In this document: piece after piece, positions 11,199 through 43,535 of the stretch
Numbering within the stretch: position 1 is the first letter of the stretch
Layout of the letters: each line of letters begins with the position of its first letter
Sequence record: NZ_CP090008.1
From: a plasmid
Direction: 5' to 3' (one strand)
Length of the DNA: 64,000 bases
The notes under the pieces: model-generated
The model's input: the letters and a program-made list of their open reading frames with translations, nothing else
The model's database searches: none
What the model was told of the DNA's origin: nothing
Position numbers and translations under genes: made by a program

Positions 11199-11200
11199 GG

Positions 11201-12853: not shown

Positions 12854-12856
12854 CCT

Positions 12857-16281: not shown

Positions 16282-16312
16282 AGGGAAGAATAATGTTTAT
16301 GGAGGAAATGAT

Positions 16313-17149: not shown

Positions 17150-17160
17150 AAGGAGTTCAC

Positions 17161-19122: not shown

Positions 19123-19145
19123 AAATGGTGAAAGGGGGAAATACA

Positions 19146-19451: not shown

Positions 19452-19454
19452 ATA

Positions 19455-20153: not shown

Positions 20154-20156
20154 TAT

Positions 20157-20579
20157 ATGGTATCTTATCGTTTTAAACGAGATGGTCAGTATATTCAACG
20201 TGAACTAGAACTAGATTCTCTTAATGGTTATCAAGACCAAGTCTATCCGGAAAGCCTCGAAGAGCAAGTAGATTATTCAGCGTTTTACGATACCTACTAT
20301 GACGGTTTTGGTGAGGACAGTATCTCACGTGAACAAGAGAAAAAACAAGGTCTCATTGCGCGTGGGAAAGAAAGGTTATCCAGTGTCAAGGAGGATGTGA
20401 CAGACTATTATAATTTGCAAGTGGAACGTCACAAAGACTATTACTCAGATGAAGATTCATTTTGGATGCGTAAGCAACAACAAAAACGAAATCGAAAATT
20501 CATTAAACAAAGTATCTTTCTTGCCCTAGGACTATTACTTGTATTTGGTTGGTACTGGCTAACCGCACTACTTCATTAA
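20157..20579 (+). CDS. hypothetical protein with C-terminal TM anchor
   Basis: Operon-packed; C-terminal IFLALGLLLVFGWYWLTALL. Confidence 0.4.
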   Translation: MVSYRFKRDGQYIQRELELDSLNGYQDQVYPESLEEQVDYSAFYDTYYDGFGEDSISREQEKKQGLIARGKERLSSVKEDVTDYYNLQVERHKDYYSDEDSFWMRKQQQKRNRKFIKQSIFLALGLLLVFGWYWLTALLH

Positions 20580-20596
20580 GGGGGTGACTAAGATAT

Positions 20597-22642: not shown

Positions 22643-22812
22643 ATCAAGAAGGAGAAAAAATGAAAACAAAAATCAATCAAAAAAGCATGTTTTTAACTTC
22701 CATCTATTTGGAATCAATGGTAGGTTTTCACCAAGCTATCTACCACTAATTGACCTAACTGTTAGTGAAAACAAGGCAAAATAATACATAAATATAATTA
22801 TGTATATACTAA

Positions 22813-22840
22813 AAAGGAGTCTGAATAGAGCTCCTTTTTA
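22813..22840 (+). terminator. hairpin terminator after hydrolase gene
   Basis: aaaaggag-tctgaatagag-ctcctttt. Confidence 0.45.
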
Positions 22841-22929
22841 GTCGCTTAATTTTTAACTTTCAAGTTATGAGTAGGTAGTTAAATTAAGTTATTATGAAAA
22901 GTTATAATAGGAGTAGAAAAAGTGCATAA

Positions 22930-23739
22930 TTGATTTCAATAAGGAGGGACTTAGATTTGCCTAATAATAGTTACGAAGATTTTTTATATGATGAGGATCA
23001 ACGGCTCCATAGTGTATATGAAGTTCAAAAAGAATATGAACAGAATAATGGTGATATTTCAAAGTATCGTGATAAAATGTTGTGTCCTGAATGTAAAAGA
23101 GCGAAATTACGTTTTACACATAAAACATCAGAAAGAAGAGCATTTTTATCAACTTTTCCAACCTCAAACCATGAAAAAGGTTGTTCATATAATTATGACC
23201 TAGCTTCAAATAGGGCGGTTAAGCAATTTGTAGCAACATTAACAGATGAACAAGTACATGATAGGCTTGAAGCAATGTTAAATACCTTGTTGCCTAGGTA
23301 TAGAAGAGACAATGAAAATGCAGTAAATGCTGAACAAGAGAATCCATTCGTAATAGATATAGGAGCAAGAAACCATCAGCTTAACCGAAGAGCAATATCA
23401 AGAAAGTCTATGAATCGTTGGTTTGATAAAGCGGATGAAAACAACATATTCCTATTTTATGGTAAGGTAAGGTTATCAGTTGAAGAGACAAAAACCAAGA
23501 AGGGGAAACGGTATAGATTAATTGTGAAGACCAAGAGAGGAGTGGAATGGATCCAAAAGACCAGAATTTTTAGAGGGATGGCTAAAGATGCTATCGATGA
23601 GAATACAACGTATGACCTTGCTGTTATGGGACACCTTGAATTTTATAATATCCTTCCACAAATTGTCACAGAATCATGGACTTCGATTTTGTATAGAGAG
23701 GCAAGGAGAAAAGAAGAAACAATAAAGTATATTCTTTAA
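22930..23739 (+). CDS. hypothetical protein with Cys/His zinc-finger-like motif (CPECK...H...C)
   Basis: 269 aa; LCPECKRAKLRFTHKTSERRAFLSTFPTSNHEKGC; precedes nuclease gene. Confidence 0.5.
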   Translation: MISIRRDLDLPNNSYEDFLYDEDQRLHSVYEVQKEYEQNNGDISKYRDKMLCPECKRAKLRFTHKTSERRAFLSTFPTSNHEKGCSYNYDLASNRAVKQFVATLTDEQVHDRLEAMLNTLLPRYRRDNENAVNAEQENPFVIDIGARNHQLNRRAISRKSMNRWFDKADENNIFLFYGKVRLSVEETKTKKGKRYRLIVKTKRGVEWIQKTRIFRGMAKDAIDENTTYDLAVMGHLEFYNILPQIVTESWTSILYREARRKEETIKYIL

Positions 23740-23861
23740 AAGGTGTACTTTATTTTAGGGGTGAATAATGTATATTTTAGTTCTATATTTATCTGCTTAA
23801 ATCATGTAAAAGCCGTGTTATAATTTAGAAAAGGAAAATTATACTTTTAGGAGGACAACAT

Positions 23862-25667
23862 ATGAGCAGTCGTGACAAATACACAGTAGAGTTAAAACCT
23901 TCAGCATTAGATATTAAACAAACTTACTCTGACTACCCTGAATTGAAGAATTTGCTAGAAAATTCTTCATATGATGATGGAGGTTTCTTCATTCTGAATA
24001 ACAATAAGATGTTTGATGATGATAAACGGCCTAGTATTTGTCAGCATAAAATTATTTTGGACGAAATACAAAATATTGAAATTAAAACAATAAAGGTATT
24101 GTTGTCTAAACGGTTTAATAAAAACAAAGATAATTTTGAAGCTTCCGAGACTCATAAGGATAAAAAAGGGAAGTATTTAGAGTGGACAACTAAACCTGAT
24201 AATGTCTATGGCAAACAACACATAAAAATTGATTGTTCAGTGTTTCCCAGTGAGGATATTTTTAATCGAGGACATCTAATAGCAGATTCAATTATTGATT
24301 ATTGTGACGAATTTGATTACCGTAAACGGGAAGACTTCGTTATGATCACTAATTGGTGTAATCGAGCCAATACTAATCACAAAACTAGAAAAGCTTGTGG
24401 TATGTTCTATTTTGAGAATGTTATACTTAATACATTAGAAAAAGGAATTGATGTTGAATATAGAGTTACGCCAATCTTTAAAAAGAATTCAGAAGGTGCA
24501 AAACAAGAATTTGAATACCTTCCTAGAGGCGTTATTTTAGAAGCTAAAACGCTAAATAAAGAAGCGTTTGAAGTAGAAGATGATTATGTTATCATGAATG
24601 AATTTAATGTCTTTATCCCAAATGCTCAAAATGGTTTAGACATCAATTATAAAACAGGTTCAATAAAAGCCACTTCATCTTTAACTGAAGCAAATGCAAG
24701 CCCTGCAGACCACATTAAAAAATTACCTGAACATATTATAAAGGACGCATTATCAACTATTGCAACATATCCTAAAGTAGCAGAACAAGCTAATCTATCA
24801 AGAATAGCAGCAGCTACAAGCGTGTTGAAAAATAAAGAAATTACACAACTTCTAAAGAAAATAGATAGTGTGATAGAACAATCAGGTTTGAAGCGGTTTT
24901 CAGAACAGAATAAGGAACTTTTCAAAAGTCTAAATAAAACGTCACAAATCATTAGCACGTTAGGCCAAAGTATTGCCACAGACTACCTCGTAGAATTAAG
25001 AAGACAGTTTTCAAATTTATCTGAGGTAGTAAAAGATGCTCTTACTCCATACACGGAAGAAGAGAGAAAGAGTATAATCGATAAAGTAGAAATTTTTGCT
25101 GATAAAGGCTGGGTTATCTTCTTCCAAAACAGAGCAGTCGTTAATCAGCTTTTGTTAGACGATACTGAAGACATTGAGGTGGAGTGGTTAGATAATCTTA
25201 AAGAGATTATTTCAGATACATCTAACATAGAGTATTTAGCGAGATCACAGTGTTTTTCTTATCATCTAATCCAGTCAATGGCAATGAGTTATTCAGAACA
25301 AAACTACTACGCAGCCTACACGCTTGCTTCATTAGCTATTGATGGTGCACTTAATAGATTAGCAGAGCCATTATCTAGTGAGGTGGATAAAGTGACAGCA
25401 GTTGGACACAAAGCGATAAGAAAAATTGATGAGCAAATAAGTCCTGGAGAAAAAACAGTTTTTGACTACGGCCTTTTGCATTGGTGTTATAACTTTTTTG
25501 CCGATACCCAACGATTTACTATTAATTATCCAAACAGACACATGATTGGACACGGACGTTGGGATGACGAGATTTCAGAAGAAGAGTTTTTAAAACTATT
25601 TAATGTGTTACTTTATCTTGAGGAGAATTTTGATTATTGGGCAGGAATTATTGATGAAAATTGTTAA
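23862..25667 (+). CDS. cytoplasmic protein with DNA/RNA non-specific (beta-beta-alpha-Me) endonuclease-like domain + 380-aa unknown C-terminal region
   Basis: FNRGHLIADS (DRGH-type catalytic motif) followed by ENVILNTLEKGIDVEYRVTPIF resembling the Serratia-nuclease ...RKLIDRADISSVYTVTGPLY segment; no signal peptide. Confidence 0.5.
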   Translation: MSSRDKYTVELKPSALDIKQTYSDYPELKNLLENSSYDDGGFFILNNNKMFDDDKRPSICQHKIILDEIQNIEIKTIKVLLSKRFNKNKDNFEASETHKDKKGKYLEWTTKPDNVYGKQHIKIDCSVFPSEDIFNRGHLIADSIIDYCDEFDYRKREDFVMITNWCNRANTNHKTRKACGMFYFENVILNTLEKGIDVEYRVTPIFKKNSEGAKQEFEYLPRGVILEAKTLNKEAFEVEDDYVIMNEFNVFIPNAQNGLDINYKTGSIKATSSLTEANASPADHIKKLPEHIIKDALSTIATYPKVAEQANLSRIAAATSVLKNKEITQLLKKIDSVIEQSGLKRFSEQNKELFKSLNKTSQIISTLGQSIATDYLVELRRQFSNLSEVVKDALTPYTEEERKSIIDKVEIFADKGWVIFFQNRAVVNQLLLDDTEDIEVEWLDNLKEIISDTSNIEYLARSQCFSYHLIQSMAMSYSEQNYYAAYTLASLAIDGALNRLAEPLSSEVDKVTAVGHKAIRKIDEQISPGEKTVFDYGLLHWCYNFFADTQRFTINYPNRHMIGHGRWDDEISEEEFLKLFNVLLYLEENFDYWAGIIDENC

Positions 25668-25796
25668 CTTTTAGCAAATACCATTTTGAAGAGCTGACCT
25701 CAGTTTAACGAGACTGTAAAAGCACTACACATGATTTAATGCTAAGTAAATAGAAGCCATTATAAGAAAGGTTACATATGACTACAGAACAACACA

Positions 25797-26063
25797 ATGG
25801 GGAATGGTCAAGATTGGGTGCGAACAGCGGCAAGCCTCGGTGGAGAAACAGGGTCAACCCCAAAAGCAGGTGCTATTATCTCTTTTGTGGGTGGTGGTCA
25901 TGGCTCAGATGTAGGATGCGAACATGTGAGTTTTGTCGAAAAAGTTTATCCAGATGGGTCATTCCTTATTTCAGAAACGAATGTCAATGACAATCCCAAT
26001 TACACTTTCCGTAAATTATCAGGACCAGATAGTACCATGAGTTTTGCCTATACGAGGAAATAA
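25797..26063 (+). pseudogene. 3' fragment of a CHAP-domain gene
   Basis: GAIISFVGGGHGSDVGCEHVSFVEKVYPDGSFLISETNVNDNPNYTFRKL is a CHAP C-terminal half (His region) with no N-terminal Cys part; last 130 bp duplicated at 27098-27228. Confidence 0.6.
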
Positions 26064-30463: not shown

Positions 30464-30995
30464 GGCTCTATAATTTCTGTAGTAGGTAAAACCACTGTAG
30501 GAATTATGGAGTCTATGTTTTTGTAGAAAAAAAGCCCCATAAGACCTATAATGAAAAAGTGGCCAAACCCTCATTAGAAAGAATCTTATGGAACAATTAA
30601 ATTTTATCACAAACATACTTGGAATTAATGACAAAAATATTTTTATCTTAGATTATCTTGATGCTGGAACGCATAAAGAAGTCATTGCTAAGCTCGATTA
30701 TCCTGCCTCTAAATGTCTCAACTGTCAAGGACAAATGGCTAAATATGACTTTCAAAAAGAATCCAAAATCCCCTACCTCGAATGTGCTGGCTACAAGACT
30801 CTCATTCGATTGAGAAAACGCCGTTTCCGCTGTAAAGACTGTGGAAAACATACTAAGATTAGTAGTGAAGAAATCTCCGATGGGAGAGAGTACTCACTAC
30901 TTTTTCTTTATGTTAAAGTAGTGGTGTCTTGTAAAGTCGTAGGGCTCTATGGCGCTAGACGTCGCTTGACAAACTGGCAAGACACCTTGTTTTAG
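30464..30995 (+). mobile_element. ISL3-family IS left end + truncated transposase (N-terminal 90 aa only)
   Basis: GGCTCTATAATTTCTGTAGTAGGTAAAAC terminal repeat; ORF 30588 N-terminus MEQLNFITNILGI...CLNCQGQMAKYDFQKESKIPYLECAGYKTLIRLRKRRFRCKDCGK is the ISL3 zinc-finger N-domain, then frame decays. Confidence 0.7.
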
Positions 30996-31091
30996 GTGGA
31001 GTTTGATCAAAGTATGTGGGACGCTAAACGTCGCGTATTGAAAATATAATCACTAAAACATGGAATTATTCAAGACAAAAGAGGTAATGTC

Positions 31092-32015
31092 ATGCGTGCA
31101 GTATTTGGAATTGATGTAAGTAAAACAAGCTCTGAGGTGGCCATTTTAGTCAACAGTAAGAAGATTAATGGCTACACCATACTCAATGATGCCATTGGGT
31201 TCAATCGCCTGTTGGGCGACTTGAAAACTGTTCATAAACCAACTTACGTGCAGGAAGAAGTTTATCAACACCTGCGTGATTTAAGCCGTTTCTATCAAAA
31301 TATGACAGAAGATCTTGTTCAAACTAAAAACTGTCTGCACAAGGTCCTACAAGTCACCTTTCCTGAATTGGAAAATCTATTATCCACCCCTACTGGAGAG
31401 CAATATTGGAACTTAGTGATGGCTTTTCCATGCAAAGAGTTTATATTAAGCTTATCTCAAAGTAACTTGTGTGAGATTATCCGTCAATCTACCTCCAAAC
31501 GCATCTCTGAAAAGCGTATTGCTTACCTGACTGATAAACTTATAAAACTTGCTAAACAATCTCTTTGTGCGGTCAAGAAAACCTCTCCAATGCTTGAAGA
31601 GGTTCGTTACTATGCTCAAGAATTGCTTCGTCTTTCTGAACGCAGACAAGTTGTCTTAAACGACATGGTAGCTCTAGCTCAGCCTTTACCAGAATATGAC
31701 ATCTTACGGTCAATTCCTGACATCGCAGAAATCACAGCGACATCTATCATTGGCGAATTGGAAGATATTCGTCGCTTTCAGTCTACCAATCAAATCAACG
31801 CTTTTATTGGCATTGACCTGAGACACTATGAATCTGGGAACTTTCTCGCCAAGGAACACATCACTAAACGAGGTAATCCCTATGTCAGAAAAATCTTGTT
31901 CAAGTGCATTCACAACATCGCTTCAGCTAGTCATACCAATCCTTGTCATATCCCAGATTTCTATGAGAAATGTATTACCTCATTACGCATAACAAACTTT
32001 ACGATTACTCTTTGA
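31092..32015 (+). mobile_element. IS110-family transposase (possibly C-terminally truncated, 307 aa)
   Basis: MRAVFGIDVSK N-terminus and DEDD-type N-domain typical of IS110; shorter than usual ~400 aa. Confidence 0.65.
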
Positions 32016-32542: not shown

Positions 32543-32773
32543 ATGAATGGGATAGGTTATATACTTAGGAGGTTACGGAAAGAAAAAGGGATTACACAGA
32601 GAGTTATCTATACAAATCTTTGTAGTCGAAAGCAACTTTCTAGGATAGAAAATAATACATCTTTCCCATCAGTATATCTTTTATATCATATTTGCCAAAG
32701 ATTAGAAGTGACAATAGATGAAGTTATCAAATTAACATTAGAAGGAGAAAGTAATGGCAATCAGCACAAGTGA
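32543..32773 (+). CDS. short XRE/Rgg-like HTH transcriptional regulator (76 aa)
   Basis: ILRRLRKEKGITQRVIYTNLCSRKQLSRIENNTSFPSVYLLYHICQRLEV; overlaps start of QueA-like gene. Confidence 0.6.
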   Translation: MNGIGYILRRLRKEKGITQRVIYTNLCSRKQLSRIENNTSFPSVYLLYHICQRLEVTIDEVIKLTLEGESNGNQHK

Positions 32774-33800
32774 ATTAAAGTATGAATTACCGGTCGAATT
32801 AGCTGCTCGACAACCTATAGAACTGACATCGAGTAGAAGGGATGGAACTAGATTAATAGTAGGTTTTAAAAACTCTCAAAAAATCATTGATGATGTTTTT
32901 ACAAATTTTACTAACTATATAAATTCAGGAGACTTACTTATTTTAAATAATAGTAAAACAATTTCACCAATTTTTTATGCATATTCCGATAAATATGGAG
33001 AGGTGAAATTTCATATTAAGACTAAGACTGATTTAGGATATGTATCATATATCAGAATTAGAGAAGATTTAAAAGATAAAATTATTGGTGAGAACTTTAT
33101 TGTAACTGATGAAATAGAAGTATCTGTAAATAAACGAACTGAAGGCGATGAATTTTTGTGTAGTTTTAATTGTTCTGAAGAGGATTTGTATAACTATTTA
33201 TTAATTAATGGTGAGGCAGTGAAATCAATTTATACAAAGAAAAAATGGTCAATTGATTATTATCAAAATGAAGTTGCAAATAAATTAGGATCTTTTGAAA
33301 ACCCAGCAGCGAGTCGGCACTTTACTAATAAAATGTTAAATATTTTACGTGAAAAAGGGGTAAGAATCGCGTATATTACTTTAAATTGTGCTTCGGTTGA
33401 TACAAAAATTTTTGAGGATATTATAGAGAAACATGTTGTTTTTAAGGAATACTATGAGATCCCCGAAGAAACAGTAAGATTAATTCAAGAAACAAAATTA
33501 AACGGTAATAAGGTGTTTGCGGTTGGAACTACAGTTATTAGGACTTTAGAAAGCTGTAATTATGATAATTTCAGAATTACTTCCCCTTTAAAAAATTATA
33601 CTGATTTATATATTCATCCTGGACATAATTTTAAAGTAACAGATGCTTTAATTACAAATTTTCATGGATCAATGACTAGTAGACTTGCTCTTTCTGCAGC
33701 TGCAATTGGTGTGGATAATATTATGAATTTATACAAACATGCAATCGAAGAAAAATATTTATTTTATGAGTTTGGGGATGCGAATTTATTATTCATGTAG
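32754..33800 (+). CDS. QueA-like S-adenosylmethionine:ribosyltransferase-isomerase paralog
   Basis: Collinear with QueA: YELPVELAARQP..., GDLLILNNSKTI, VGTTVIRTLES (QueA VGTTSTRTLE), ITNFHGSMTSRLALSAA, YKHAIEEKYLFYEFGDANLLF (QueA YxHAxEExYRFFSFGDAMLI). Confidence 0.75.
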   Translation: MAISTSELKYELPVELAARQPIELTSSRRDGTRLIVGFKNSQKIIDDVFTNFTNYINSGDLLILNNSKTISPIFYAYSDKYGEVKFHIKTKTDLGYVSYIRIREDLKDKIIGENFIVTDEIEVSVNKRTEGDEFLCSFNCSEEDLYNYLLINGEAVKSIYTKKKWSIDYYQNEVANKLGSFENPAASRHFTNKMLNILREKGVRIAYITLNCASVDTKIFEDIIEKHVVFKEYYEIPEETVRLIQETKLNGNKVFAVGTTVIRTLESCNYDNFRITSPLKNYTDLYIHPGHNFKVTDALITNFHGSMTSRLALSAAAIGVDNIMNLYKHAIEEKYLFYEFGDANLLFM

Positions 33801-33831
33801 TTTAGTAAATAACTAGAAAGGGGGTGATGAT

Positions 33832-33906
33832 ATGAAGAAGTTGACATTGAAAGAACTGGTTGATAAAAATAATGATTTGCTCTCACGTTGCACAATCAAT
33901 AAATAA
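33832..33906 (+). CDS. candidate 24-aa precursor peptide MKKLTLKELVDKNNDLLSRCTINK
   Basis: Strong RBS AAAGGGGGTG 6 nt upstream; located between QueA-like and PqqD-like genes. Confidence 0.4.
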   Translation: MKKLTLKELVDKNNDLLSRCTINK

Positions 33907-33972
33907 TTAACCACGGAAAAATCCAATGAAGAATGATATTATTTCTTCATTGGAGTTTATTTTGGAGGGCTT

Positions 33973-34239
33973 ATGCTTTATAAAGTTAATCGAGACGTAG
34001 AAATAACAGAAGAAAATGGATATCAAGTTATTCATAGATATTCAGATGATTCGTATTTTTCCTTAGAAAATGATACTTTGTTTATTTTATTGAGTTATAA
34101 TGGTTTAAATAAATTGCAAGATATTGCAAAAAGCTTTGCAAAATATAAAGGAATTTCTAATAACAAAGCTTTAGAATACGTAGAACAAATCCAAAAATAT
34201 TTAGTTTCAGAAGGAATAATTGTCATAGATGAGAACTAA
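33973..34239 (+). CDS. PqqD-like (RiPP recognition element) protein
   Basis: 88 aa; ...FSLENDTLFILLSYNGLNKLQDIAKSFAKYKGISNNKALEYVEQIQKYLVSEGIIV matches PqqD pattern. Confidence 0.55.
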   Translation: MLYKVNRDVEITEENGYQVIHRYSDDSYFSLENDTLFILLSYNGLNKLQDIAKSFAKYKGISNNKALEYVEQIQKYLVSEGIIVIDEN

Positions 34240-35095
34240 ATCTAAGTTATTTAATAATATAGCAGAAGATAATATAGACTCCCTTTATGTACAATTGTGT
34301 AATTTAATATATAAAAATGGTAAAGTTGTAATTTCGAGAGGCATGGAGGTAAAAGAATTAATTGGGGTTAACTTAATTTTAACTAATCCCAAAAGACGCT
34401 TTTTAGAAAATGCCAACAGAAAATTAAAACTATACTACGCTATTGGAGAATTCATATGGTATATGAGGGGGAGTAATAGTTTAGAGGAAATTCAGTATTA
34501 TGCCCCTAGCATGTCACAGTTTTCTGATGATGGTTCTATTCTTCAAGGAGCTTATGGACCTAAGATTGTAACTCAAATCGATAAATTGATTACACTGCTA
34601 AGACATGACAAGGGGACTCGTAGGGCAGTTTTACCTATTTATTCTGCGAGTGAATTAGGTAAAGATAGTAAAGATATCCCATGCACACTCACATTAGAGT
34701 TTTTGATTCGAGCTAATAAGCTTCATCTCATTGTCAATATGAGATCAAACGACATATTTTTGGGGCTTCCGTATGATATTTTTTCTTTCACAATGATTCA
34801 GGAATACATTGCAAATAAGATAGGTCTAAATTTAGGATATTATTATCATAATATCGGAAGCTTACATGTCTATAAGAAACATTTTGATAGAATAAAAGAA
34901 ATATCAACTATGAATATACATAAAACATCAGAATTCAATAACTCAAATTTAATCTTTAAAAATTTAAGTGATTTGTTAAACATTGAAAAATCAATTAGAA
35001 ACGGAAGTCCATACAATATGAGCAAGGAATTACTTAATAATTCGGATTTCAATAGAATAAAGATTGAACTAGAGAAATATAAGGATAGTAGGTGA
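34229..35095 (+). CDS. thymidylate synthase-fold pyrimidine-nucleotide hydroxymethylase/methylase-like enzyme
   Basis: LKLYYAIGEFIWYMRGS (ThyA WKGVLEELLWFLKGS), RRAVLPIYSASELGKDSKDIPCTLTLEFLIRANKLHLIVNMRSNDIFLGLPYDIFSFTMIQEYIA (ThyA RRIIMSAWNP...PPCHALCQFYV...[25 protein letters not shown]); catalytic Cys retained. Confidence 0.7.
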   Translation: MRTKSKLFNNIAEDNIDSLYVQLCNLIYKNGKVVISRGMEVKELIGVNLILTNPKRRFLENANRKLKLYYAIGEFIWYMRGSNSLEEIQYYAPSMSQFSDDGSILQGAYGPKIVTQIDKLITLLRHDKGTRRAVLPIYSASELGKDSKDIPCTLTLEFLIRANKLHLIVNMRSNDIFLGLPYDIFSFTMIQEYIANKIGLNLGYYYHNIGSLHVYKKHFDRIKEISTMNIHKTSEFNNSNLIFKNLSDLLNIEKSIRNGSPYNMSKELLNNSDFNRIKIELEKYKDSR

Positions 35096-35098: not shown

Positions 35099-35683
35099 AT
35101 GTCTATCGGAAAACTAATCTATATATGTGGAATTGATGGTTCTGGGAAAACAACATTAGCCAAGAATCTTTCTAATCATTTTGGTGATAAATCAATATTT
35201 TTGCCATTAAATAATTCAAAAAGATTCATTAATGAAATTGATAGTTTCTGTAAAGAGTATAATACAGACAGGTGGAGTATATTTTCAGAATATTTTAGGG
35301 GAAATATTTGGGCGTTAGAGCTAGTTTATTTTTGTGAAAATATTTTAAAACCCGCTCTAAAAAAGTACGAATATGTATTCATCGATAGATATTATATATG
35401 TAATGCTATATATTCTAATTTATTAGTCACTAATAAGTTGGTTAATAGACTGCATGAATTACTGATTAAACCAGACATGGTTTTTTATATCAATATTAAT
35501 CCAGAGATCGCTTTTGAAAGAATTTTAAAAAGGAATGAGCAAAAAACGCCGAAAGAAAGTTTGGACAATTTAAAATTAGCTTCTGATTTATATTCAAGAT
35601 ATCTTGAAGATAAAAGTTATTATGAATTAGACGGAGAGAAGTCAGAGAATCAAATTTTAAAGTCTGTATTACAAATTATTTAG
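35099..35683 (+). CDS. dTMP-kinase-like P-loop nucleotide kinase
   Basis: LIYICGIDGSGKTTLAKNL (Tmk Walker A GIDGxGKTT); 194 aa. Confidence 0.65.
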   Translation: MSIGKLIYICGIDGSGKTTLAKNLSNHFGDKSIFLPLNNSKRFINEIDSFCKEYNTDRWSIFSEYFRGNIWALELVYFCENILKPALKKYEYVFIDRYYICNAIYSNLLVTNKLVNRLHELLIKPDMVFYININPEIAFERILKRNEQKTPKESLDNLKLASDLYSRYLEDKSYYELDGEKSENQILKSVLQII

Positions 35684-35699: not shown

Positions 35700-36689
35700 A
35701 TGAAATTTGAAACAGTACTAGATTTTTATATATACTATTTGGAAATCCTTCTGAAAAGGGAAAAAAATCATACTAAAGTTGTCCCATTTTCGGAGATAGC
35801 TAATAAAGTCGAGGTTTTCAACAATAGTATTGAGATTGTTCAAGGAACTCATAGTAATATGCTATTTAGTAGATCTGAATTTAATTATAATGTAGTGCAT
35901 ATGCTATATTCTTTGAGTGGGAGAACAGATTCATATATATTAAAAAAATATAAAAGTTCATATTGGCGATATTCGAATGAGGGATTTTATGTCAATACAA
36001 TTGGGGAGCGGTTATATACTTTATATGGTAATCAAATTAAACGTTGTGTAAATTTTTTAAAAGAAAATATTTATACGTCAGATGCCGTTTGTTTTATGAA
36101 ATCTTTTGAAAATGAAAATATTGAATGTACTCTAAATCTTCATTTTTATTATAGAGATAATCGATTAAATTTGGAGTTATCATATAAAGGTTCTAGTTTA
36201 TTAGAGTATACTAACTCCGATCTATTTATTTATTCTTCTTTACTTTCATTAATGAGCCATTGGTTAGATGTGGAACCTGGAAGTTTATTTTTAAAATGTC
36301 ACTCGATTTTTATTTCAGAAAATGATCTAGAAAGAGCTAAGAAACTATTAGAAATTGGTAAATCGTTGAGAAATATTGGTATTTCAATGAATCATAGGTT
36401 TTCATCCAGTATTGAAACTTATCGTTCAGAATTTTCTGAAGCTATCAATAGAATAATTGCTTGGGATACTGTTGATATTACTCAGAGAGTTTCTGAGGAA
36501 TTAGAGTATATAAAAAAGTATTTTACTCCATATATTCAAGACTTGTTACTTATTCTTTTAGCGGATAGATTTCATCAAACTGATAGTGATTATAAAATAG
36601 TATTGAGTCAGCTCTCAGATAGGTCAATTGGGAAATTTAAGGAAACAATTGATAAAATACAATTTAATAAATTATTAGAGGTAATTTAA
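35700..36689 (+). CDS. second thymidylate synthase-fold paralog
   Basis: SDAVCFMKSFENENIECTLNLHFYYRDNRLNLELSYKGSSLLEYTNSDLFIYSSLLSLMSHWLDVEPGSLFLKCHSIFI aligns to ThyA C-terminal half incl. catalytic Cys position. Confidence 0.55.
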   Translation: MKFETVLDFYIYYLEILLKREKNHTKVVPFSEIANKVEVFNNSIEIVQGTHSNMLFSRSEFNYNVVHMLYSLSGRTDSYILKKYKSSYWRYSNEGFYVNTIGERLYTLYGNQIKRCVNFLKENIYTSDAVCFMKSFENENIECTLNLHFYYRDNRLNLELSYKGSSLLEYTNSDLFIYSSLLSLMSHWLDVEPGSLFLKCHSIFISENDLERAKKLLEIGKSLRNIGISMNHRFSSSIETYRSEFSEAINRIIAWDTVDITQRVSEELEYIKKYFTPYIQDLLLILLADRFHQTDSDYKIVLSQLSDRSIGKFKETIDKIQFNKLLEVI

Positions 36690-36691: not shown

Positions 36692-36952
36692 TTGATAATT
36701 AAAAAGAGTCTTGCTGCTATACAACGTTCAGTATCAGGAAATGAATTTTTGTTAAATTTACTTACTGATAGGACTTTTCTCCTTAATGAAGTTTCTCTCT
36801 ATATTTGGAGTAATCTTGGAGAATGTAGTACTGAGGAAATAGCTGCAAATTTATCTAAAATGTATAATGAAAAAACCGAGATAATTCAAAATGATGTAGA
36901 TGAAGTTATTAATATTTTACAGGAAGAAGGGTTAATTGAAATTCTGAATTAA
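36692..36952 (+). CDS. PqqD-family RiPP recognition element protein (TTG start)
   Basis: LLNEVSLYIWSNLGECSTEEIAANLSKMYNEKTEIIQNDVDEVINILQEEGLIE = classic PqqD pattern. Confidence 0.65.
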   Translation: MIIKKSLAAIQRSVSGNEFLLNLLTDRTFLLNEVSLYIWSNLGECSTEEIAANLSKMYNEKTEIIQNDVDEVINILQEEGLIEILN

Positions 36953-36970: not shown

Positions 36971-37657
36971 ATGGCTGAAATTATTTATAGTATGATTGCT
37001 AATGAGATTTCAGAGCAATTGTCAGAGGATAATATTGTAATTTGGAAATCTGAGATGGATGGACTGGGGACCTCATTATCTGATATCGATGCATATTGTA
37101 TCTGCAAGGAAGAAAAAGTAATAAAAAGCTTTGTATATGAAGGGACACCGGTTGATATTGAATATGTGACTTCGGAAAGGCTAAAAGCTAAAATTAATAA
37201 AATTTATCAATACACTAATCATGGTGATATTTATAAAGGATTAGATGAAGATTTGAAATTATTTTACAGATTACAAAGAGGAGAGAAATCAGCTAAATTT
37301 TCATTGATTGGAGTTGAAGTTCCCACACTTGAGGAAATTTCTAAGATTGCAGCACAATATTATTATGAATTATTTTTAGGTCTGTATGAAGATGCTTATA
37401 AAATGTACCATGGGAAAAATAAATTAGATTCTTTTGTCCTTTCCCTAGAGACATTACAAATGTCTATTGCAACTTATTTAGCTAGGGTAGGGAAACCACA
37501 ATTTAAGAAAAAATGGCTATTTAAATATTTTAATATAGTAGCTAACAATTCCCTATATAAAGATTTAATTACACAATTAGAATCAACACAGGAATATGAT
37601 TTAATGGAATTCACAGAGAGTATACTAGTCAATTCAAAAAAGCTTCTAGAAATTTAG
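36971..37657 (+). CDS. Pol-beta superfamily nucleotidyltransferase
   Basis: MDGLGTSLSDIDAYCI (G[SG]x9-13Dx[DE] motif). Confidence 0.55.
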   Translation: MAEIIYSMIANEISEQLSEDNIVIWKSEMDGLGTSLSDIDAYCICKEEKVIKSFVYEGTPVDIEYVTSERLKAKINKIYQYTNHGDIYKGLDEDLKLFYRLQRGEKSAKFSLIGVEVPTLEEISKIAAQYYYELFLGLYEDAYKMYHGKNKLDSFVLSLETLQMSIATYLARVGKPQFKKKWLFKYFNIVANNSLYKDLITQLESTQEYDLMEFTESILVNSKKLLEI

Positions 37658-37857
37658 TATATTGAAAGGAGGTGAGATTATGGTCTATAAAAAACCTATT
37701 GTTGAAGATATTAAATTAAGTGCCTCTGCATTACTTGTATAATATCTTAGTATAAGTCGGAGAGTTGAACAGAATAATTATGTAGTTAATATGACTAACA
37801 GGAAGTATTACTACAAAAAATTCTGTTCAACTTTCCATTTTTTATAGAGTAATAAAA

Positions 37858-38664
37858 ATGAGCAAAATTAGGTATATCATAATAAAGATACTATTACATC
37901 AATTTTACGGAATCAAAAATATAAAATTAATAAATTGTGTTAAAAATATGAATAAAGTTTATATTTTTGAAGATATCAACAAAAAGGTCAAAATGGTTTT
38001 AAAAGTAGAATCTGAAAGAAGAATTAATTCGATCAAGTACCAACATATATTTTCCAATTATGGGATATCGCCAAAAATAATTAAAACTAGAACAGGAAGA
38101 CAGTATATAAAGATTTATAGATTGGTAATATTTGTACAAGAGTATGTAACATCTAGTAAAAGAAAGGTCACTTCAACAGAGATTGTGGGATTTTTAAAAT
38201 ATTTTTACGGAAAAATGGATGAAATAAGAGAATATTTACCCGAAGTTTTGACTACTTATCCATTATATAAGCAAGGCGCATTAAGTAAATGGTTTTATGT
38301 AGTCCATGGTGATTTACGTCCACAAAATATTATCATTACCAGGGATAGTTTTAGCGTGATTGATTTTGAGTATTTAAGTCTAGGAATTCGAGAAACTGAA
38401 ATTCTCAAGTTAATTATAATAATTTGTAAATATCAAAGTAATTTGATTGAATCGCTATATTCTAAATTCTTAGAATCAGACGTAATAGAAATGCATATAG
38501 AGGAGGCGATAAGGGTTCTTTTGTATGATCTTCTTAAATCAAATTTTCCTGAAAAGGTCAAGAATAATATTCCAAAGAATTATTTTTTAGAAATAACTTC
38601 TGAAAGGGAGGCATTAATAAACTTTTGCCATACATATTTAAAAAGAAAGGAATCCCAAAAATGA
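37858..38664 (+). CDS. APH/choline-kinase-like phosphotransferase
   Basis: FYVVHGDLRPQNIIITRDSFSVIDFEY (HGDxxxxN ... IDFE catalytic/Mg motifs). Confidence 0.6.
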   Translation: MSKIRYIIIKILLHQFYGIKNIKLINCVKNMNKVYIFEDINKKVKMVLKVESERRINSIKYQHIFSNYGISPKIIKTRTGRQYIKIYRLVIFVQEYVTSSKRKVTSTEIVGFLKYFYGKMDEIREYLPEVLTTYPLYKQGALSKWFYVVHGDLRPQNIIITRDSFSVIDFEYLSLGIRETEILKLIIIICKYQSNLIESLYSKFLESDVIEMHIEEAIRVLLYDLLKSNFPEKVKNNIPKNYFLEITSEREALINFCHTYLKRKESQK

Positions 38665-39710
38665 TTTCAACTGAGATTGAGAAAAAATATCTACTTACAA
38701 AAGAAGAATTTCTATCCTTTAGTAGAGATTTTTTTAAAAGTGCAAAAATTCAAGAACAAACTAATTATTATTTTGATAGTTTAGATTTTTCACTATTAAA
38801 GAGAGGAATGACTCTTAGAATTCGAGAAAAATATGATAAATATATTTTAACATTAAAGAAAAAGAAATCAGTCAAAATAATTGTAGAATCGGAAGAAATT
38901 AATTTCGTAATTACACCGCAAGACTTTCAAGAGGCAATCTTAACTGGAGAATTTCCCCAAAATGTAAAGAAAGAACTAGACTCATTAATTCCCGAAAAGA
39001 AAATTTTTTATCTAGGTTTTCTAAAAACTAAAAGATATGTAATCGAAAAAAATTCTTTGATATATTGTTTAGATAAAAATAATTATTTTGGAAAGGAGGA
39101 TTTTGAATTAGAAATTGAAGGAACAGAGAAAGGACTAAAAGAAATTGAAATTGATATTTCCAAGAGCAAATCTAATAATGTTGGAAAATATGCTAGATTT
39201 ATTGATGAATTATTGAAAGGAAACGGTAATTATCTGATTAAAACTCAAGTGTCTGCAATTATTCTTAATAAAAGTAGCGATAAAGTTTGTCTTATTAAGA
39301 AGGATATTCCAACCTCAAGTATACATAATATGTGGCTTCCACCCGGTGGACATATCGATTTTGGAGAAAATTTAATAGATGCTGTCAAAAGAGAGGTCTA
39401 TGAAGAGACAGGGTTAGAAGTTACGGTTTCAAAATTATCTAGCATTGTATCGTTTCATCAAAAAAAGGCAGAGCAAGCTATTTGTTTCTTTTATGTCGCA
39501 GAATCCCAAAATATTAATGAAATAAATGTCACTGAGCCAGGCATTGAATGCAGGTGGTTTAATTTAAAAGATATACTAAGTGGAGATGATATAAATATGA
39601 CATCCTATCATAAGCTTATAATATCCGACTTGCAAGATAACAGGATTTTATATTTGAATTTAAAAAAATCTGATAATCAATATAATATTGAAAATATAGT
39701 TCATATTTAA
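38661..39710 (+). CDS. CYTH (triphosphate tunnel) - NUDIX fusion protein
   Basis: N-terminus MISTEIEKKYLL (CYTH EIE[RK]KFL start); C-terminal Nudix box GGHIDFGENLIDAVKREVYEETGL; ATGA overlap with kinase gene. Confidence 0.6.
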   Translation: MISTEIEKKYLLTKEEFLSFSRDFFKSAKIQEQTNYYFDSLDFSLLKRGMTLRIREKYDKYILTLKKKKSVKIIVESEEINFVITPQDFQEAILTGEFPQNVKKELDSLIPEKKIFYLGFLKTKRYVIEKNSLIYCLDKNNYFGKEDFELEIEGTEKGLKEIEIDISKSKSNNVGKYARFIDELLKGNGNYLIKTQVSAIILNKSSDKVCLIKKDIPTSSIHNMWLPPGGHIDFGENLIDAVKREVYEETGLEVTVSKLSSIVSFHQKKAEQAICFFYVAESQNINEINVTEPGIECRWFNLKDILSGDDINMTSYHKLIISDLQDNRILYLNLKKSDNQYNIENIVHI

Positions 39711-39894: not shown

Positions 39895-40881
39895 ATGAGC
39901 TACCATCATTTTACTATAGATGAACGTGAAAGCATTCTCGTTTACCGTACGCATGACCTAAATTTTTCTCAAATTGCTAAATCACTTCATCGTCATTAGT
40001 CTAGCAGTAGTGGTGAGTGGCAACGACATCTTAAAGAAGGAAGCTATTCTCCAAGTCATGCATAGGAATCTTATCATATGGCTAAATCACACTGTGGGCG
40101 GAAACGTATGCTTGAAATAGATCACAATTTAAGCAATACCGTCAAACATCTATTTCTCGATTACCAATGGTCTCCCGAAGAAATAGAAGGTCGGTTGCGA
40201 TTAGAGTATGGAAAAACTGTTATTAGTTATCAAACAATCTATAGAGCCATTTACAGAGGGCATTTTGATGATAACTCACTATCTCATGGTGCTCGTGGTG
40301 TCATTCGAAAGCTCCGTCATCGTGGTAAAACACGTCATACAAAAGGTTATGTCGAAAATAGAGGGAAAATCTCTATATCTCATACAATTCACGAAAGACT
40401 AGAAGATGCTAATAACCGAACTAGAATAGGAGATTGGGAAGCCGATACTGTTGCAGGTAAAACTAGAAAAGCTTGTTTAGTGACTCTAACTGACCGTTAT
40501 TCTCGTTTTCTAAAAATCCAGAAGGTAGCTGTCAAGAAAAGCAAGTTGGTAATAGAAGCTATGGTAAAAATGTTAGAGCCCTTGACGAAGCATACAATAA
40601 CTCCTGATAGAGGGAAAGAATTCACGTATCATCAGAAATTGAGCGATCAATTGAACATTGAAGTCTATTTTCCTGACCCTCATGCTCCATGGCAACGAGG
40701 AACCAATGAGAACACGAAAGGATTACTTTGAGAGTATTTTCCAAAGGGTAGTGATCTAACATTGGTTGATGATCAGACTATTCAGCTGTGGGAGAACAAA
40801 CTTAATAATAGGCCACGAAAATGTCTTAACTGGAAAACACCTTATGAAGTATTCTATGGGGAAAGTATGCACTTAATTTGA
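39895..40881 (+). pseudogene. IS30-family transposase, disrupted by stop codons/frameshift
   Basis: MSYHHFTIDERESILVYR...(stop)...RIGDWEADTVAGK...TPDRGKEF...HAPWQRGTNENTKGLL(stop)EYFPKG; reading frame broken at least twice. Confidence 0.7.
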
Positions 40882-40953: not shown

Positions 40954-41745
40954 ATGCTACTAGCTGTAATAAGAAGAAACTGGCAGATGTATAAAAGATA
41001 TTTTCCAGTAACATTGTTTTTTAATAGGGGTTTGGATGCTGGTTTTACTCTATTAGGTTTGTGGTTAATAGCGAATTTTTTATTCGCAAATAACATTAAA
41101 GTTGGTAATGCTATAGAGTACTCAGATTACTTCAGTTATGCTGCAGTAGGATTGGTTTATTATAATGCATCAATTGCTATTCTGATGAATGTAGGGAGAG
41201 CATTAATAACAGAAGTTAGAGAAGGCACTCTTGAAAGTACATTAGTATCTCCTTTTAACATTGTCTATTATTACTTAGGAATCTTTTTAGAGCAGTTTGT
41301 AAGGACCTTTTTGGAATTTCTATTTTCTTATATAATTGCTATTTTGCTCGGTGCAGATTTACAACAAATTACATTACTGATTTTATTGCTTGGCTTCTTA
41401 TATGTTTCGATTTGCTCTTTTTCGATGGGGGTATTCCTATCAAATATAATGTTGTGGTTTAGGGATACATTCATTAGTCAAAATACAATTTTTCTGATAA
41501 TCTTCTTGGTCTCAGGCATTACCTTTCCAATAGAATTATTGCCAAAATTTTTAAGGGTGATTAGTAATTTTATACCGTTAACATATTCTATTAAGGCAAT
41601 AAGAACCTTATATTTGGAAACCCAGACGAGTATGATCAATCTTAGCTTTATACAAGGTTTACTACTTTCAATATTATACTTCTTGATAGGGATTCTGGTA
41701 TATAATAAGGTTGAGAAAAAAATTGTAAGTGATGTTTCATATTAA
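40954..41745 (+). CDS. ABC-2 type exporter permease
   Basis: 263 aa, 6 TM helices. Confidence 0.6.
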   Translation: MLLAVIRRNWQMYKRYFPVTLFFNRGLDAGFTLLGLWLIANFLFANNIKVGNAIEYSDYFSYAAVGLVYYNASIAILMNVGRALITEVREGTLESTLVSPFNIVYYYLGIFLEQFVRTFLEFLFSYIIAILLGADLQQITLLILLLGFLYVSICSFSMGVFLSNIMLWFRDTFISQNTIFLIIFLVSGITFPIELLPKFLRVISNFIPLTYSIKAIRTLYLETQTSMINLSFIQGLLLSILYFLIGILVYNKVEKKIVSDVSY

Positions 41746-41763
41746 GTGAAGGAGAGAAATAAA

Positions 41764-42744
41764 ATGTATGAAGTATTCAATATTTCAAAAGATTATGTAA
41801 CAAAAAAGAGAATAGGATTGTTTAAACATAAAAAAGAAGTTAAAAAAGCTATACAAGATGTAAATTTATCAGTCCCTAGAGGTAAAATTATTGGTGTTTT
41901 AGGAGAAAATGGTGCAGGGAAAACAACTTTAATAAAGATGATGACAACACTTCTATCAAGTGATACTGGAAAAATTTTGATAGATGGAGTTGACATTAAT
42001 CAAAATGTAAAAAATACTCGAAAAAGGATCAACATCATTAGTGGAGGAGAAAAAAATCTCTATTGGAGATTGACTGCAGTTGAAAATTTACTCTATTTTG
42101 CTTCTCTGTACGGTCTTCCAAAGAAAGAGGCATTACCTAAGATAGATAATTTATTGAATGAATTAGGGCTTTGGGAAAGTAAGGATACTCCTGTAGAAAA
42201 ATTTTCAAAGGGAATGAAGCAACGCTTACAAATTGCTAAAGGACTAATCAATGATCCAGAATATTTATTTCTTGATGAACCTACACTAGGTCTAGATGTC
42301 AGTATTGCTTACGAGTTGAGAAAAAAATTAAAAGAGATAGCGGCTAAGCGGAATACAGGAATTTTGTTAACAACTCACTACATGGCTGAAGCAGATGAAT
42401 TATGTGATTATATTTATTTTTTAAAACATGGTAAAGTAATTGTGTCAGGTACCAAAACACAGGTTTTTGAACAATTACAGATGACACCAGAGCTTCATGT
42501 CATCCTTTCAGATAGGGATGATGAAAATTCTTCAAAGCTGGCTCAAGTTAGTCGTTTATTTCCATGTATAATTTTGGAAAAATTTGGTAGTAGTATATTG
42601 TTGAAATTCTCTCTTTCAGAATATAATGTGCAGGATATAATAAAAAGCCTATATAATAATCAAATTGAAATTAAGGAAATAAGATATAATGAGCCTACTC
42701 TTGAAAATGTTATTCTAAATTTAGGAGGAAAGAGCTTAAAATGA
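41764..42744 (+). CDS. ABC transporter ATP-binding protein
   Basis: Walker A GENGAGKTT, LSGG-like KFSKGMKQRL, Walker B LFLDEP. Confidence 0.75.
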   Translation: MYEVFNISKDYVTKKRIGLFKHKKEVKKAIQDVNLSVPRGKIIGVLGENGAGKTTLIKMMTTLLSSDTGKILIDGVDINQNVKNTRKRINIISGGEKNLYWRLTAVENLLYFASLYGLPKKEALPKIDNLLNELGLWESKDTPVEKFSKGMKQRLQIAKGLINDPEYLFLDEPTLGLDVSIAYELRKKLKEIAAKRNTGILLTTHYMAEADELCDYIYFLKHGKVIVSGTKTQVFEQLQMTPELHVILSDRDDENSSKLAQVSRLFPCIILEKFGSSILLKFSLSEYNVQDIIKSLYNNQIEIKEIRYNEPTLENVILNLGGKSLK

Positions 42745-43535
42745 ATTCGATAATAGTTAGTACTTTTAAGAGTGAATTTAGAAGAACATTTTTAAATGAC
42801 AGTATTAATAAATTTTATTTTTTTTCAATGATACTTTGGCCAATTATTTCTCTAATTCAAATTTTTTACAATATGCAAGCCTTTCCAATTACGGATATAC
42901 AAATAGCATCTCTAAGATATGAAGACCAATTAATTTATTTTATATTTATTGGTTATTGTGTTTACATCATTTTTTCAAATGCTGTTCAGAGTGCATGGAG
43001 GCTTGGTGGAGAACGATATCAAGGAACTCTTAGTCAAATTTTTATTGCTCCAATTAAAAAAAATCTATGGCTTTATGCACGTACCTTATCACTTATTTTA
43101 AGTAATTCATGGTTTTTTATCACTATTTTTATTATTGGAAATTTTGTCTATTCTGATGCTTATGAATATATTCTTGCGTCCACTTTTATTTTAGTTGTTG
43201 CATCCTGGATTTGGGCAAGTTTCTTAGGTAGTATTTGTATCAGTTTGAGAGATGCAACGGTAGTTTATGTATTATTGGAGAGCTCTCAAAATACTTTTAG
43301 TGGTGCTAAAGTTCCATTATCAAAATCACCTCGATTAATAAAAGTTATAGGGAGTTTATTTCCCATTAGCTACACAATTATTTATCTAAGAGATATACTT
43401 CTTTATAAAGAGATTATAAGTATAAGTGCTATTTGGTGCTTATGCATAAATATCTTTGTTATTTTATTAACGAAGATAGTGTTAGAAGTTGGAGAAAGAC
43501 ACATGAAAAAAGTGGGCAGTTTTGATTTATTTTGA
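42741..43535 (+). CDS. ABC-2 type exporter permease (second)
   Basis: 264 aa, 6 TM helices, ATGA overlap with ATPase gene. Confidence 0.6.
   Translation: MNSIIVSTFKSEFRRTFLNDSINKFYFFSMILWPIISLIQIFYNMQAFPITDIQIASLRYEDQLIYFIFIGYCVYIIFSNAVQSAWRLGGERYQGTLSQIFIAPIKKNLWLYARTLSLILSNSWFFITIFIIGNFVYSDAYEYILASTFILVVASWIWASFLGSICISLRDATVVYVLLESSQNTFSGAKVPLSKSPRLIKVIGSLFPISYTIIYLRDILLYKEIISISAIWCLCINIFVILLTKIVLEVGERHMKKVGSFDLF

Follow-up and report, generated by a model that had tools for sequence, protein, structure and literature searches.

A conserved short gene between a QueA paralog and a PqqD-like protein encodes a candidate precursor peptide on a plasmid

Do the two small open reading frames (ORFs) that lie between a QueA paralog and a PqqD-like gene on a plasmid (sequence record NZ_CP090008.1) encode precursor peptides? 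An initial annotation of a 64,000-nt stretch of this plasmid, called the window hereafter and used for all positions, had proposed both of them, ORF1 and ORF2, as overlapping candidate precursors of a peptide made on ribosomes and modified after its translation (RiPP). Both ORFs were recovered with the same coordinates and translations; however, they do not overlap, as a gap of 19 nt separates ORF1 from ORF2. We found that ORF1 (33832-33906) is a real conserved gene, and it is quite probably the structural gene for the ribosomally made precursor peptide A of a cluster that depends on a RiPP recognition element (RRE). The features directly concerned are the following.

32754-33800, + strand: QueA paralog with the S-adenosylmethionine (SAM) ribosyltransferase-isomerase fold (Pfam Queuosine_synth, 248 bits)
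33815-33828, + strand: extended Shine-Dalgarno (SD) sequence of ORF1, AGAAAGGGGGTGAT, with a hybridisation energy (dG) of -22.7 kcal/mol against the anti-SD
33832-33906, + strand: ORF1, candidate precursor peptide A, 24 aa, MKKLTLKELVDKNNDLLSRCTINK, from the ATG at 33832 through a TAA that ends at 33906
33922-33954, + strand: stem-loop with a 12-bp stem, a 9-nt loop and a U-rich tail, between ORF1 and PqqD1
33926-34000, + strand: ORF2, a chance frame running across the hairpin, a ribosome-binding site (RBS) and the first PqqD1 codons
33973-34239, + strand: PqqD1, 88 aa, a stand-alone RRE, lasso-B1-like by profile and fold

Conservation and coding evolution of ORF1

In 14 kb of this region 151 ORFs of 20 aa or more were counted, which is the chance level for bare small ORFs, and bare open frames of this size therefore carry no weight here. 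ORF1 was set above chance by its RBS and its conservation, neither of which was found for ORF2. The strength of the RBS was taken as the hybridisation energy between the 20 nt upstream of the start and the 3′ tail of the 16S rRNA (anti-SD). With -22.7 kcal/mol, ORF1 had the strongest RBS of the cluster, as the initial annotation had noted, and also the strongest among the 1359 + strand ATGs of the window. A dG of -17 or lower was reached by only two of these ATGs, that of ORF1 and that of an ORF at 37680, and the window median was -3.3. ORF1 follows the QueA-like gene after 31 nt and precedes PqqD1 by 66 nt, all three being on the same strand.

A tree of 119 QueA homologs set the housekeeping sequences apart from three clades, of which clade A contains the type of cluster found here, clade B comprises the loci L017, L019 and L024, and clade C is L023. 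A syntenic small ORF was found in 10 independent loci (L002/3/4, L021, L005, L008, L009, L011, L025, L017, L019 and L024), with an equally strong RBS and with QueA-like and PqqD neighbours in all 10, even though identity of the QueA-like proteins to that of the window falls to about 38-45% among them. Conservation in homologous clusters, which the initial annotation had suggested as a check, was thus observed for ORF1, and outside L021 ORF2 was broken or absent. The nearest relative, L021, is intact and without transposases, and its DNA identity to the window is 85-98% gene by gene (mostly 94-98%); protein identity in L002-L004 is 60-80%. L005, L008 and L025 are metagenomic, L009 is the Geobacillus thermodenitrificans plasmid pGeo12a, L011 comes from Brevibacillus panacihumi and L012 from Bacillus cereus. 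All clade-A loci but L012 have the small ORF between their QueA-like and PqqD1 genes. Furthermore, an unbiased scan of 12 loci on both strands for ORFs of 12-60 aa whose anti-SD dG did not exceed -13 yielded almost solely relatives of peptide A and of a second peptide, peptide B, described below.

The substitution pattern of ORF1 was that of a coding sequence. Between the window and L021 it differs by two synonymous and no non-synonymous changes. Against L002, 9 synonymous and 11 non-synonymous changes were counted, and the SD, the ATG, the stop and the Cys were kept; the extended SD is retained throughout L002-L004 and L021. The resulting pN/pS was 0.29 (NG86), compared with 0.15-0.36 for the neighbouring enzymes, and the synonymous excess was significant (Fisher p 0.0016), with stops in the other two frames of the region in this comparison. 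Codons 1-12 carried 5 synonymous and 1 non-synonymous change (p 9e-5) and codons 13-24 carried 4 and 10, with Cys20 and Lys24 unchanged. When 20 random substitutions were introduced, only 3% of the variants still had an uninterrupted frame with its start, stop and Cys all in place.

Leader and core of the peptide family

Across the ORF1 family the leader was conserved and the C-terminus was variable. An alignment of nine members left Met1 and one Cys as the only invariant residues, with two shared motifs, MKK[YL]T.[PK]EL in the leader region and hydrophobic-hydrophobic-[S/A]-x-C before the Cys; a Lys stands no more than 4 residues from the Cys in 9 of the 10 loci. We propose that the leader of ORF1 spans roughly residues 1-15 or 1-16 and that the core is LLSRCTINK, containing the invariant Cys20. 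The leader-plus-short-core arrangement beside an RRE that had been suggested for both ORFs is therefore borne out for ORF1, with its conserved leader, variable Cys-containing C-terminus and RRE-fold neighbour, and fails for ORF2, which is absent from L002 and has no RBS. Two modification sites had been considered, an internal Cys or a C-terminal TINK; the former fits the invariance of the Cys, and the TINK tail was not conserved save for the nearby Lys.

The MKK-LTLKEL of the window aligns with MKK-YTKPEL of its relatives, and it can therefore be read as a degenerate form of YxxPxL, the lasso-peptide leader motif. The YxxPxL motif itself is found in the relatives from L009, L011, L017, L019 and L024 and in peptide B. 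The L009 peptide (51 aa, 9059-9214) and the L011 peptide (49 aa, 9057-9206) carry three tandem F-x-K-C-R cores after their YxxPxL leader, and tandem cores are a known multi-core design of RiPP precursors. The leaders of these two gave weak matches to the lasso-leader model (E 0.06-0.075, below the cut-off); beyond these sub-threshold matches, Pfam and NCBIfam assigned no family to the peptides. A word-based search with the 49- and 51-aa relatives retrieved only the two themselves, both under the GenBank name 'hypothetical protein'. For pGeo12a, the plasmid gene table, which is incomplete, has no gene at the precursor position, and the neighbouring enzyme is named queA.

PqqD1 as a recognition element

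PqqD1 alone gave no Pfam match. The profile of its orthologs, on the other hand, matched TbiB1 (5v1u) over the full length with an E-value of 6e-10, and other PqqD proteins as well. The AlphaFold2 (AF2) model of PqqD1 had a predicted local distance difference test (pLDDT) score of 92, and its best Foldseek matches were the TbiB1 and TfuB1 leader complexes, with template modelling (TM) scores of 0.79-0.86. By profile and by modelled fold PqqD1 is a peptide-recognition element (RRE), for which leader binding is predicted. A complex prediction for the L008 PqqD1 with its 30-aa peptide returned 'no answer' and was counted neither way.

PqqD1 thus shares its fold, and detectable sequence similarity, with the lasso B1 systems (TbiB1/TbiA and TfuB1; PDB 5v1u, 5v1v and 6jx3). 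As in those systems, a small precursor gene adjoins the recognition protein, and relatives of ORF1 carry YxxPxL. However, the window leader lacks the Tyr and Pro, and the partner enzyme here is a QueA paralog. Since Pfam and NCBIfam searches with all ORFs of the cluster detected neither a B2 (transglutaminase-like) protease nor a C (asparagine-synthetase-like) cyclase, the cluster is not a lasso system.

The QueA paralog and related clusters

The QueA paralog matched Pfam PF02547 over its full length (1.4e-73) and keeps core motifs, GTT..R.LE, TNFH and FGD among them, of QueA, the tRNA preQ1(34) SAM ribosyltransferase-isomerase. It fell below the NCBIfam equivalog cut-offs, with 225.5 against 324 for NF001140 and 215.4 against 267.45 for TIGR00113. 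Among 198 columns conserved in housekeeping QueA, 49 are kept in both peptide-linked clades A and B, and 64 are replaced in both, including the GTFRP motif and several Arg/Lys positions. For 12 members of the non-housekeeping clades the gene context was examined, and in each of them a PqqD gene adjoins the QueA-like gene. A scan of genome contigs with the QueA paralog retrieved only a housekeeping QueA from a metagenome-assembled genome (MAG) of Saccharibacteria, which was then used as a negative control and had no PqqD neighbour.

Comparison by BLASTP of the QueA-like protein, PqqD1, the two thymidylate-synthase-fold proteins TS1 and TS2, the monophosphate kinase, PqqD2, a 228-aa protein, the APH-type kinase and CYTH/NUDIX (all listed in the next section) revealed orthologs of most components in most clade-A loci. 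In L003, a metagenomic relative, the QueA-like gene (658-1703) and the APH gene (5827-6646) are each split in two, by a frameshift or an assembly error.

The clade-B clusters contain no nucleotide enzymes. They consist of a TldD/PmbA protease gene together with a QueA-like gene, a PqqD gene and a peptide of 30-33 aa, the trio lying at 7001-8479 in L017, 7001-8496 in L019 and 6001-7494 in L024. The clade-B peptide has a YxxPxL leader and ends in G-L-A-L-[S/A]-C-C-[H/S]-K. Genes for a GT4 glycosyltransferase, a PIG-L deacetylase, an ABC transporter and a radical SAM protein are added in L019 and L024, and in L017 and L024 the trio stands beside conjugation genes. In clade C (L023, 4814-8512) the QueA-like gene lies between two PqqD genes, accompanied by AlkZ-like, DAO, MFS and ACPS genes.

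The trio of QueA-like enzyme, recognition protein and Cys peptide is thus constant, also where the nucleotide enzymes are missing, and on this comparison of gene content the QueA paralog is likely to be the peptide-modifying enzyme of the cluster. In the reaction of QueA, a primary amine adds to a SAM-derived vinyl sulfonium and an epoxy-dihydroxycyclopentyl group is delivered (PMC10491745). By analogy, either the Cys thiol or a Lys amine of the peptide could act as the nucleophile in a QueA-type step.

Other genes of the cluster

The remaining genes and signals of the cluster are given below.

32543-32773, + strand: helix-turn-helix (HTH, XRE-type) regulator, first gene of the operon, overlapping the start of the QueA-like gene (Pfam HTH_19/HTH_3)
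34229-35095, + strand: TS1, a thymidylate-synthase-fold protein most like the cytidine monophosphate (CMP) 5-hydroxymethylase MilA
35099-35683, + strand: deoxythymidine-monophosphate (dTMP)-kinase-like nucleoside-monophosphate (NMP) kinase (Pfam Thymidylate_kin, 2e-22)
35700-36689, + strand: TS2, a divergent second thymidylate-synthase-fold protein (Pfam Thymidylat_synt at threshold, 24.3 bits)
36692-36952, + strand: PqqD2, the second RRE (Pfam PqqD, 2e-11; weak NCBIfam lasso_PqqD matches)
36971-37657, + strand: Pol-beta-fold nucleotidyltransferase of 228 aa, without a family hit, paired with PqqD2
37664-37675: perfect SD sequence of peptide B, GAAAGGAGGTGA
37680-37742, + strand: precursor-like peptide B, 20 aa, MVYKKPIVEDIKLSASALLV
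37759-37845, + strand: large hairpin behind peptide B, terminator-like and with a U-run (-36 kcal/mol, z -7.2)
37858-38664, + strand: kinase of the APH/protein-kinase fold (Pfam APH)
38625-39710, + strand: CYTH-NUDIX fusion, start codon uncertain (Pfam CYTH 3e-21, NUDIX 2e-15)
40954-43535, + strand: ABC-2 permease, ATPase and permease genes (Pfam)

Peptide B, which follows PqqD2 and the nucleotidyltransferase, had not been part of the initial annotation. Its RBS (dG -21.5) is the second strongest in the window, and it carries the leader motif YxxPx[LIV]. A small ORF directly after the nucleotidyltransferase gene was conserved in L002, L021, L008, L009, L011 and L025, and the hairpin behind it was seen again in L021, L008 and L009. 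As a recognition protein and a small peptide of its own belong to each half, the cluster thus has two modules.

No family hit was available for the 228-aa protein itself. Its AF2 model (pLDDT 88) was closest in Foldseek to 3c18, to the kanamycin nucleotidyltransferase ANT(4') (6un8/1kny) and to LinB; a D-I-D motif is invariant, and the L025 ortholog weakly matches Pfam Polbeta. Pairing with a PqqD protein suggests, on the basis of this model, a peptide nucleotidyltransferase guided by its recognition protein. The wider family comprised 333 cluster representatives among 1.8 billion, seven of them at an E-value of 1e-30 or better, and one of these seven pointed to L025, where the cluster is complete and each small ORF occupies the position predicted for it.

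TS1 matched MilA (PDB 5b6d/5jnh) at an E-value of 4e-37 and true thymidylate synthases at 1e-19. It keeps a Cys aligned to the CTL motif of MilA, which we take to be the catalytic Cys, and the ND motif aligns as well; the Asp of its PYD, which by our reading of the alignment is at the position of Asn177 in thymidylate synthase, is presumably the mark of cytosine specificity. Although TS1 is closest to MilA of the mildiomycin pathway, the cluster has no CMP N-glycosidase partner, and TS1 is accompanied instead by kinases, a nucleotidyltransferase and peptide-recognition proteins.

By BLASTP, the dTMP-kinase-like kinase and TS2 are kept in all clade-A clusters, and Cys143 is invariant in the TS2 alignment. 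A scan of metagenome contigs with a three-sequence TS2 alignment gave one weak, unrelated match. A TS2 protein search against plasmids retrieved the Geobacillus plasmid and an unrelated nucleoside-type cluster of Apilactobacillus. This unrelated cluster (L015, Apilactobacillus kunkeei plasmid OX335326.1, 19854-26192) is present on 13 plasmids and encodes a thymidylate-synthase-fold enzyme, a DNPH1-like N-hydrolase and a D-Ala-D-Ala-ligase-like protein; it looks like a nucleoside-type natural-product cluster.

APH orthologs were found throughout clade A; the one exception was L012, where the contig breaks off shortly after the cluster begins. CYTH and NUDIX are separate genes in L009, L011 and L025, and HTH regulator orthologs occupy the same place in L002, L008 and L021. 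A transposase fragment of the rve type (40078-40731) stands between the cluster and the ABC-2 genes in the window; in L021, L009, L008 and L025 the ABC-2 genes are contiguous with the cluster. Judged from this gene order, the ABC-2 genes likely serve export or immunity. In L021 an upstream NUDIX gene is contiguous with the cluster as well.

Proposed pathway

These observations can be assembled into a pathway in which we infer the assignment of enzymes to peptides, the modified residue, the chemistry and the bioactivity. ORF1 would be translated very efficiently from its extended SD, and PqqD1 would bind the N-terminal leader (MKKLTLKEL...), a degenerate YxxPxL type. The short core at the C-terminus, approximately LLSRCTINK, would be handed by PqqD1 to the SAM enzyme of the QueA type whose gene lies just upstream, and the probable site of modification is the invariant Cys, usually with a Lys at a distance of 4 residues or less. 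The hairpin at 33922-33954 probably ends or stabilises part of the transcripts, which would leave more messenger RNA (mRNA) for the precursor than for the enzymes. TS1, TS2, the NMP kinase, the APH-type kinase and CYTH-NUDIX, together with PqqD2, the nucleotidyltransferase and peptide B, would most likely make a modified cytidine-type nucleotide and join it to a peptide, and the role of the ABC transporter would be product export or self-protection of the producer. The gene set is most simply read as making a modified short peptide that carries, or is made with, a modified cytidine-type nucleotide and leaves the cell through the ABC transporter.

A bolder proposal concerns the chemistry, and we put it forward tentatively, regarding it as rather unlikely. 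The QueA paralog would act as a maturase that places the epoxy-dihydroxycyclopentyl group derived from the ribose of SAM on the Cys or Lys of peptide A, the peptide being decorated afterwards, and this would constitute a new RiPP class. The transfer would be guided by the lasso-type recognition protein and would add C5H6O3 (+114.03 Da), and whichever of the two residues is left free might open the epoxide. As decoration, the cluster of the window, for which the plasmid setting described below points to Streptococcus, would use a 5-hydroxymethyl-cytidine-type nucleotide supplied by the MilA-like enzyme and the kinases and attached by the guided nucleotidyltransferase. In clade B the decoration would be an amino sugar.

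The gene set resembles that of microcin C, a 'Trojan horse' antibiotic of the peptidyl-nucleotide type, in combining a very short ribosomal peptide with nucleotide enzymes and export or immunity genes. The nucleotide enzymes differ, however, being here of the thymidylate-synthase fold, NMP kinase, ANT-like nucleotidyltransferase and CYTH/NUDIX types. Pfam scans gave no match to the ThiF family (MccB, E1-like) in the cluster, and ORF1 ends in Lys and not in Asn; lacking MccB and the terminal Asn, the cluster is no microcin C system. Because the streptococcal version contains a full tailoring set for pyrimidine nucleotides, a peptide-nucleotide antibiotic made by a route other than that of microcin C is therefore plausible.

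Several observations weigh against ORF1 as the precursor gene of such a pathway. The peptide is very short (24 aa) and every substitution count is small. The window leader, L-T-L-K-E-L, is without the canonical Tyr and Pro of YxxPxL, and in the L005 peptide no Lys stands close to the Cys. The Bacillus cereus locus L012 has no small ORF between its QueA-like and PqqD genes; its precursor may lie elsewhere, as the contig ends soon after these genes. Clade-C L023 shows no obvious member of the peptide family, and the only small ORF called in it looks like a signal peptide. Finally, two recognition proteins stand alongside two peptides, so that more than one pairing is possible.

From the comparisons above, ORF1 appears to represent a new precursor-peptide family in an apparently undescribed type of RRE-dependent cluster. 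A literature search of incomplete coverage, which leaves novelty unproven, found nothing linking QueA-like enzymes or this gene set to ribosomal peptides. To our knowledge, QueA chemistry has so far been known only from the synthesis of queuosine in tRNA. If ORF1 is the precursor gene, an unrecognised family of ribosomal peptides would exist, defined by the joint presence of a SAM enzyme like QueA, a recognition protein of the PqqD type and a short peptide with a Cys, and the maturase proposal, if true, would add a second biological use of QueA chemistry. The 24-aa peptide would then be a concrete candidate substrate for enzymes annotated as housekeeping queA, such as that of the Geobacillus plasmid pGeo12a.

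Alternative explanations, the hairpin and ORF2

Peptide scaffolds that are later cut out are known from the synthesis of pyrroloquinoline quinone (PQQ), where PqqA has this role, and from the mycofactocin precursor. ORF1 might likewise supply the scaffold, or the donor, from which a small molecule is made, rather than the backbone of a peptide antibiotic: a few residues at the Cys would be built upon and afterwards excised, giving a Cys-derived nucleoside-like metabolite or cofactor. PqqD proteins were first known from such a pathway, and conservation limited to the Cys and its immediate surroundings would agree with it, as would the richness of the cluster in nucleotide-metabolism enzymes. 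The tandem short cores of L009 and L011 would multiply the yield, and proteases are encoded near many of the clusters (CPBP in L008, L009 and L025; TldD/PmbA in clade B). However, clade A has no radical SAM protein or oxidase typical of cofactor pathways, and the ABC-2 genes kept with the cluster, as well as a megaplasmid-like element of a kind known to carry bacteriocins, fit an exported antimicrobial. We consider the scaffold explanation distinctly unlikely.

The hairpin behind ORF1 raises a regulatory explanation. Positions 33922-33933 pair with 33943-33954, and the fold has an energy of -19.8 kcal/mol (z -3.9). A stem-loop after the small ORF was present in all six loci that were folded, with unrelated sequences and z-scores of -2.8 to -5.4. 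Between the window and L002 the stem has undergone a compensatory change, G to A in one arm and C to T in the other, by which a G-C pair becomes A-U. Lantibiotic operons, nisA for example, have a stem-loop after the structural gene and before the modification genes. The layout here is the same, a highly translated small gene followed by a hairpin, although the enzymes are unrelated, and by this analogy the hairpin is probably a partial terminator or a stabiliser, with the effect that more mRNA is present for the precursor than for the enzymes.

The layout, in which a hairpin ending in U-rich sequence comes directly after a short, strong-RBS ORF and keeps its position between loci, would also suit a cis-regulatory leader peptide, which would govern read-through into the enzyme genes by attenuation and have no function as a peptide. 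We regard this as very unlikely. The folds, in a search that was not exhaustive, contained no antiterminator pairing overlapping ORF1, and in loci of unrelated DNA sequence the amino acids are under purifying selection and the Cys never varies. Moreover, attenuation has no role for tandem F-x-K-C-R cores or for a peptide-recognition protein.

It is still less probable that the region is an anti-phage defence or nucleotide-modification island with the small ORFs as minor regulators or chance companions: the island is mobile, its kinase and NUDIX parts weakly match the candidate models PDC-M51B and PDC-S07, and the set of thymidylate-synthase-fold, NMP-kinase and NUDIX genes is like phage nucleotide-modification modules, but such systems have no use for a pair of recognition proteins or for a pair of conserved small ORFs whose RBSs are the strongest of the window, no known defence-system core gene was matched (PADLOC recognised no system), and the trio also occurs with sugar-tailoring enzymes in place of the nucleotide enzymes.

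As for ORF2, the weak RBS ascribed to it was confirmed, its dG of -3.5 being background against the window median, and so was its overlap with the PqqD-like gene, which amounts to 28 nt from the ATG at 33973 in another frame. The ATG of ORF2 sits inside the 5′ arm of the hairpin; the rest of the frame is the GGAGGG RBS and the first PqqD1 codons read out of frame, the last 9 codons lying within PqqD1. In L002-L004 the frame meets a stop after 9 codons, and the region contains indels of 10 nt and 1 nt. No ORF2 equivalent was found in L005, L008, L009, L011 or L025. ORF2 was rejected as a gene on its background RBS, its breakage in L002-L004 and its coincidence with the stem-loop and the PqqD1 start. 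That it is nevertheless a second genuine precursor peptide is hardly credible: the window and the 96-98% identical locus L021 both have the frame open, and it contains a Cys, but its start codon is buried in a 12-bp stem, its indels are not multiples of three, beyond L021 it has no counterpart in the loci scanned, and its tail is merely PqqD1 out of frame.

Plasmid setting

The cluster is a co-directional operon, with ORF1 inside, in an island of 27-30% guanine plus cytosine against 33-41% across the rest of the window. Transposase genes or fragments lie on both flanks of this island; the mobile elements that cut it (30464-32015 and 40078-40731) are an ISL3-type fragment, an IS110 transposase gene and the rve fragment. 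The stretch 8000-26000 is about 95% identical to megaplasmids of Streptococcus salivarius, the counterpart of which has annotated genes for TrbC/VirB2, a tail-tip lysozyme and a Clp ATPase, and Rfam detected Srn266, a Streptococcus small RNA, at 30464-30575 on the - strand. On the strength of these two similarities the source is a Streptococcus megaplasmid-like or conjugative element; S. salivarius megaplasmids are known as bacteriocin carriers.

The Rfam search over 29-44 kb gave no match at the ORF1/ORF2 region, and a consensus promoter scan found promoter-like sites at chance level; AT-rich hairpins fall outside the rules of the consensus terminator scan. A near-match search of the plasmid collection with the whole cluster returned no match. 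Among sequencing runs, those of isolates and of food and food-fermentation metagenomes contained 98-100% of the words sampled from the cluster. The share in candidate RNA runs was small, and the low-depth contig fragments that four runs yielded for the region, which may derive from RNA or from DNA, have no bearing on expression. With its megaplasmid-like flanks and its near-identical copies in isolates and in food and food-fermentation metagenomes, the cluster may have a role in microbial competition.

Elsewhere in the window, two LPXTG-anchored surface proteins are encoded at 50624-53164 and 55418-58192, one of them with antigen I/II-type adhesin domains, and an ImpB/UmuC-type polymerase gene lies at 60174-61589.

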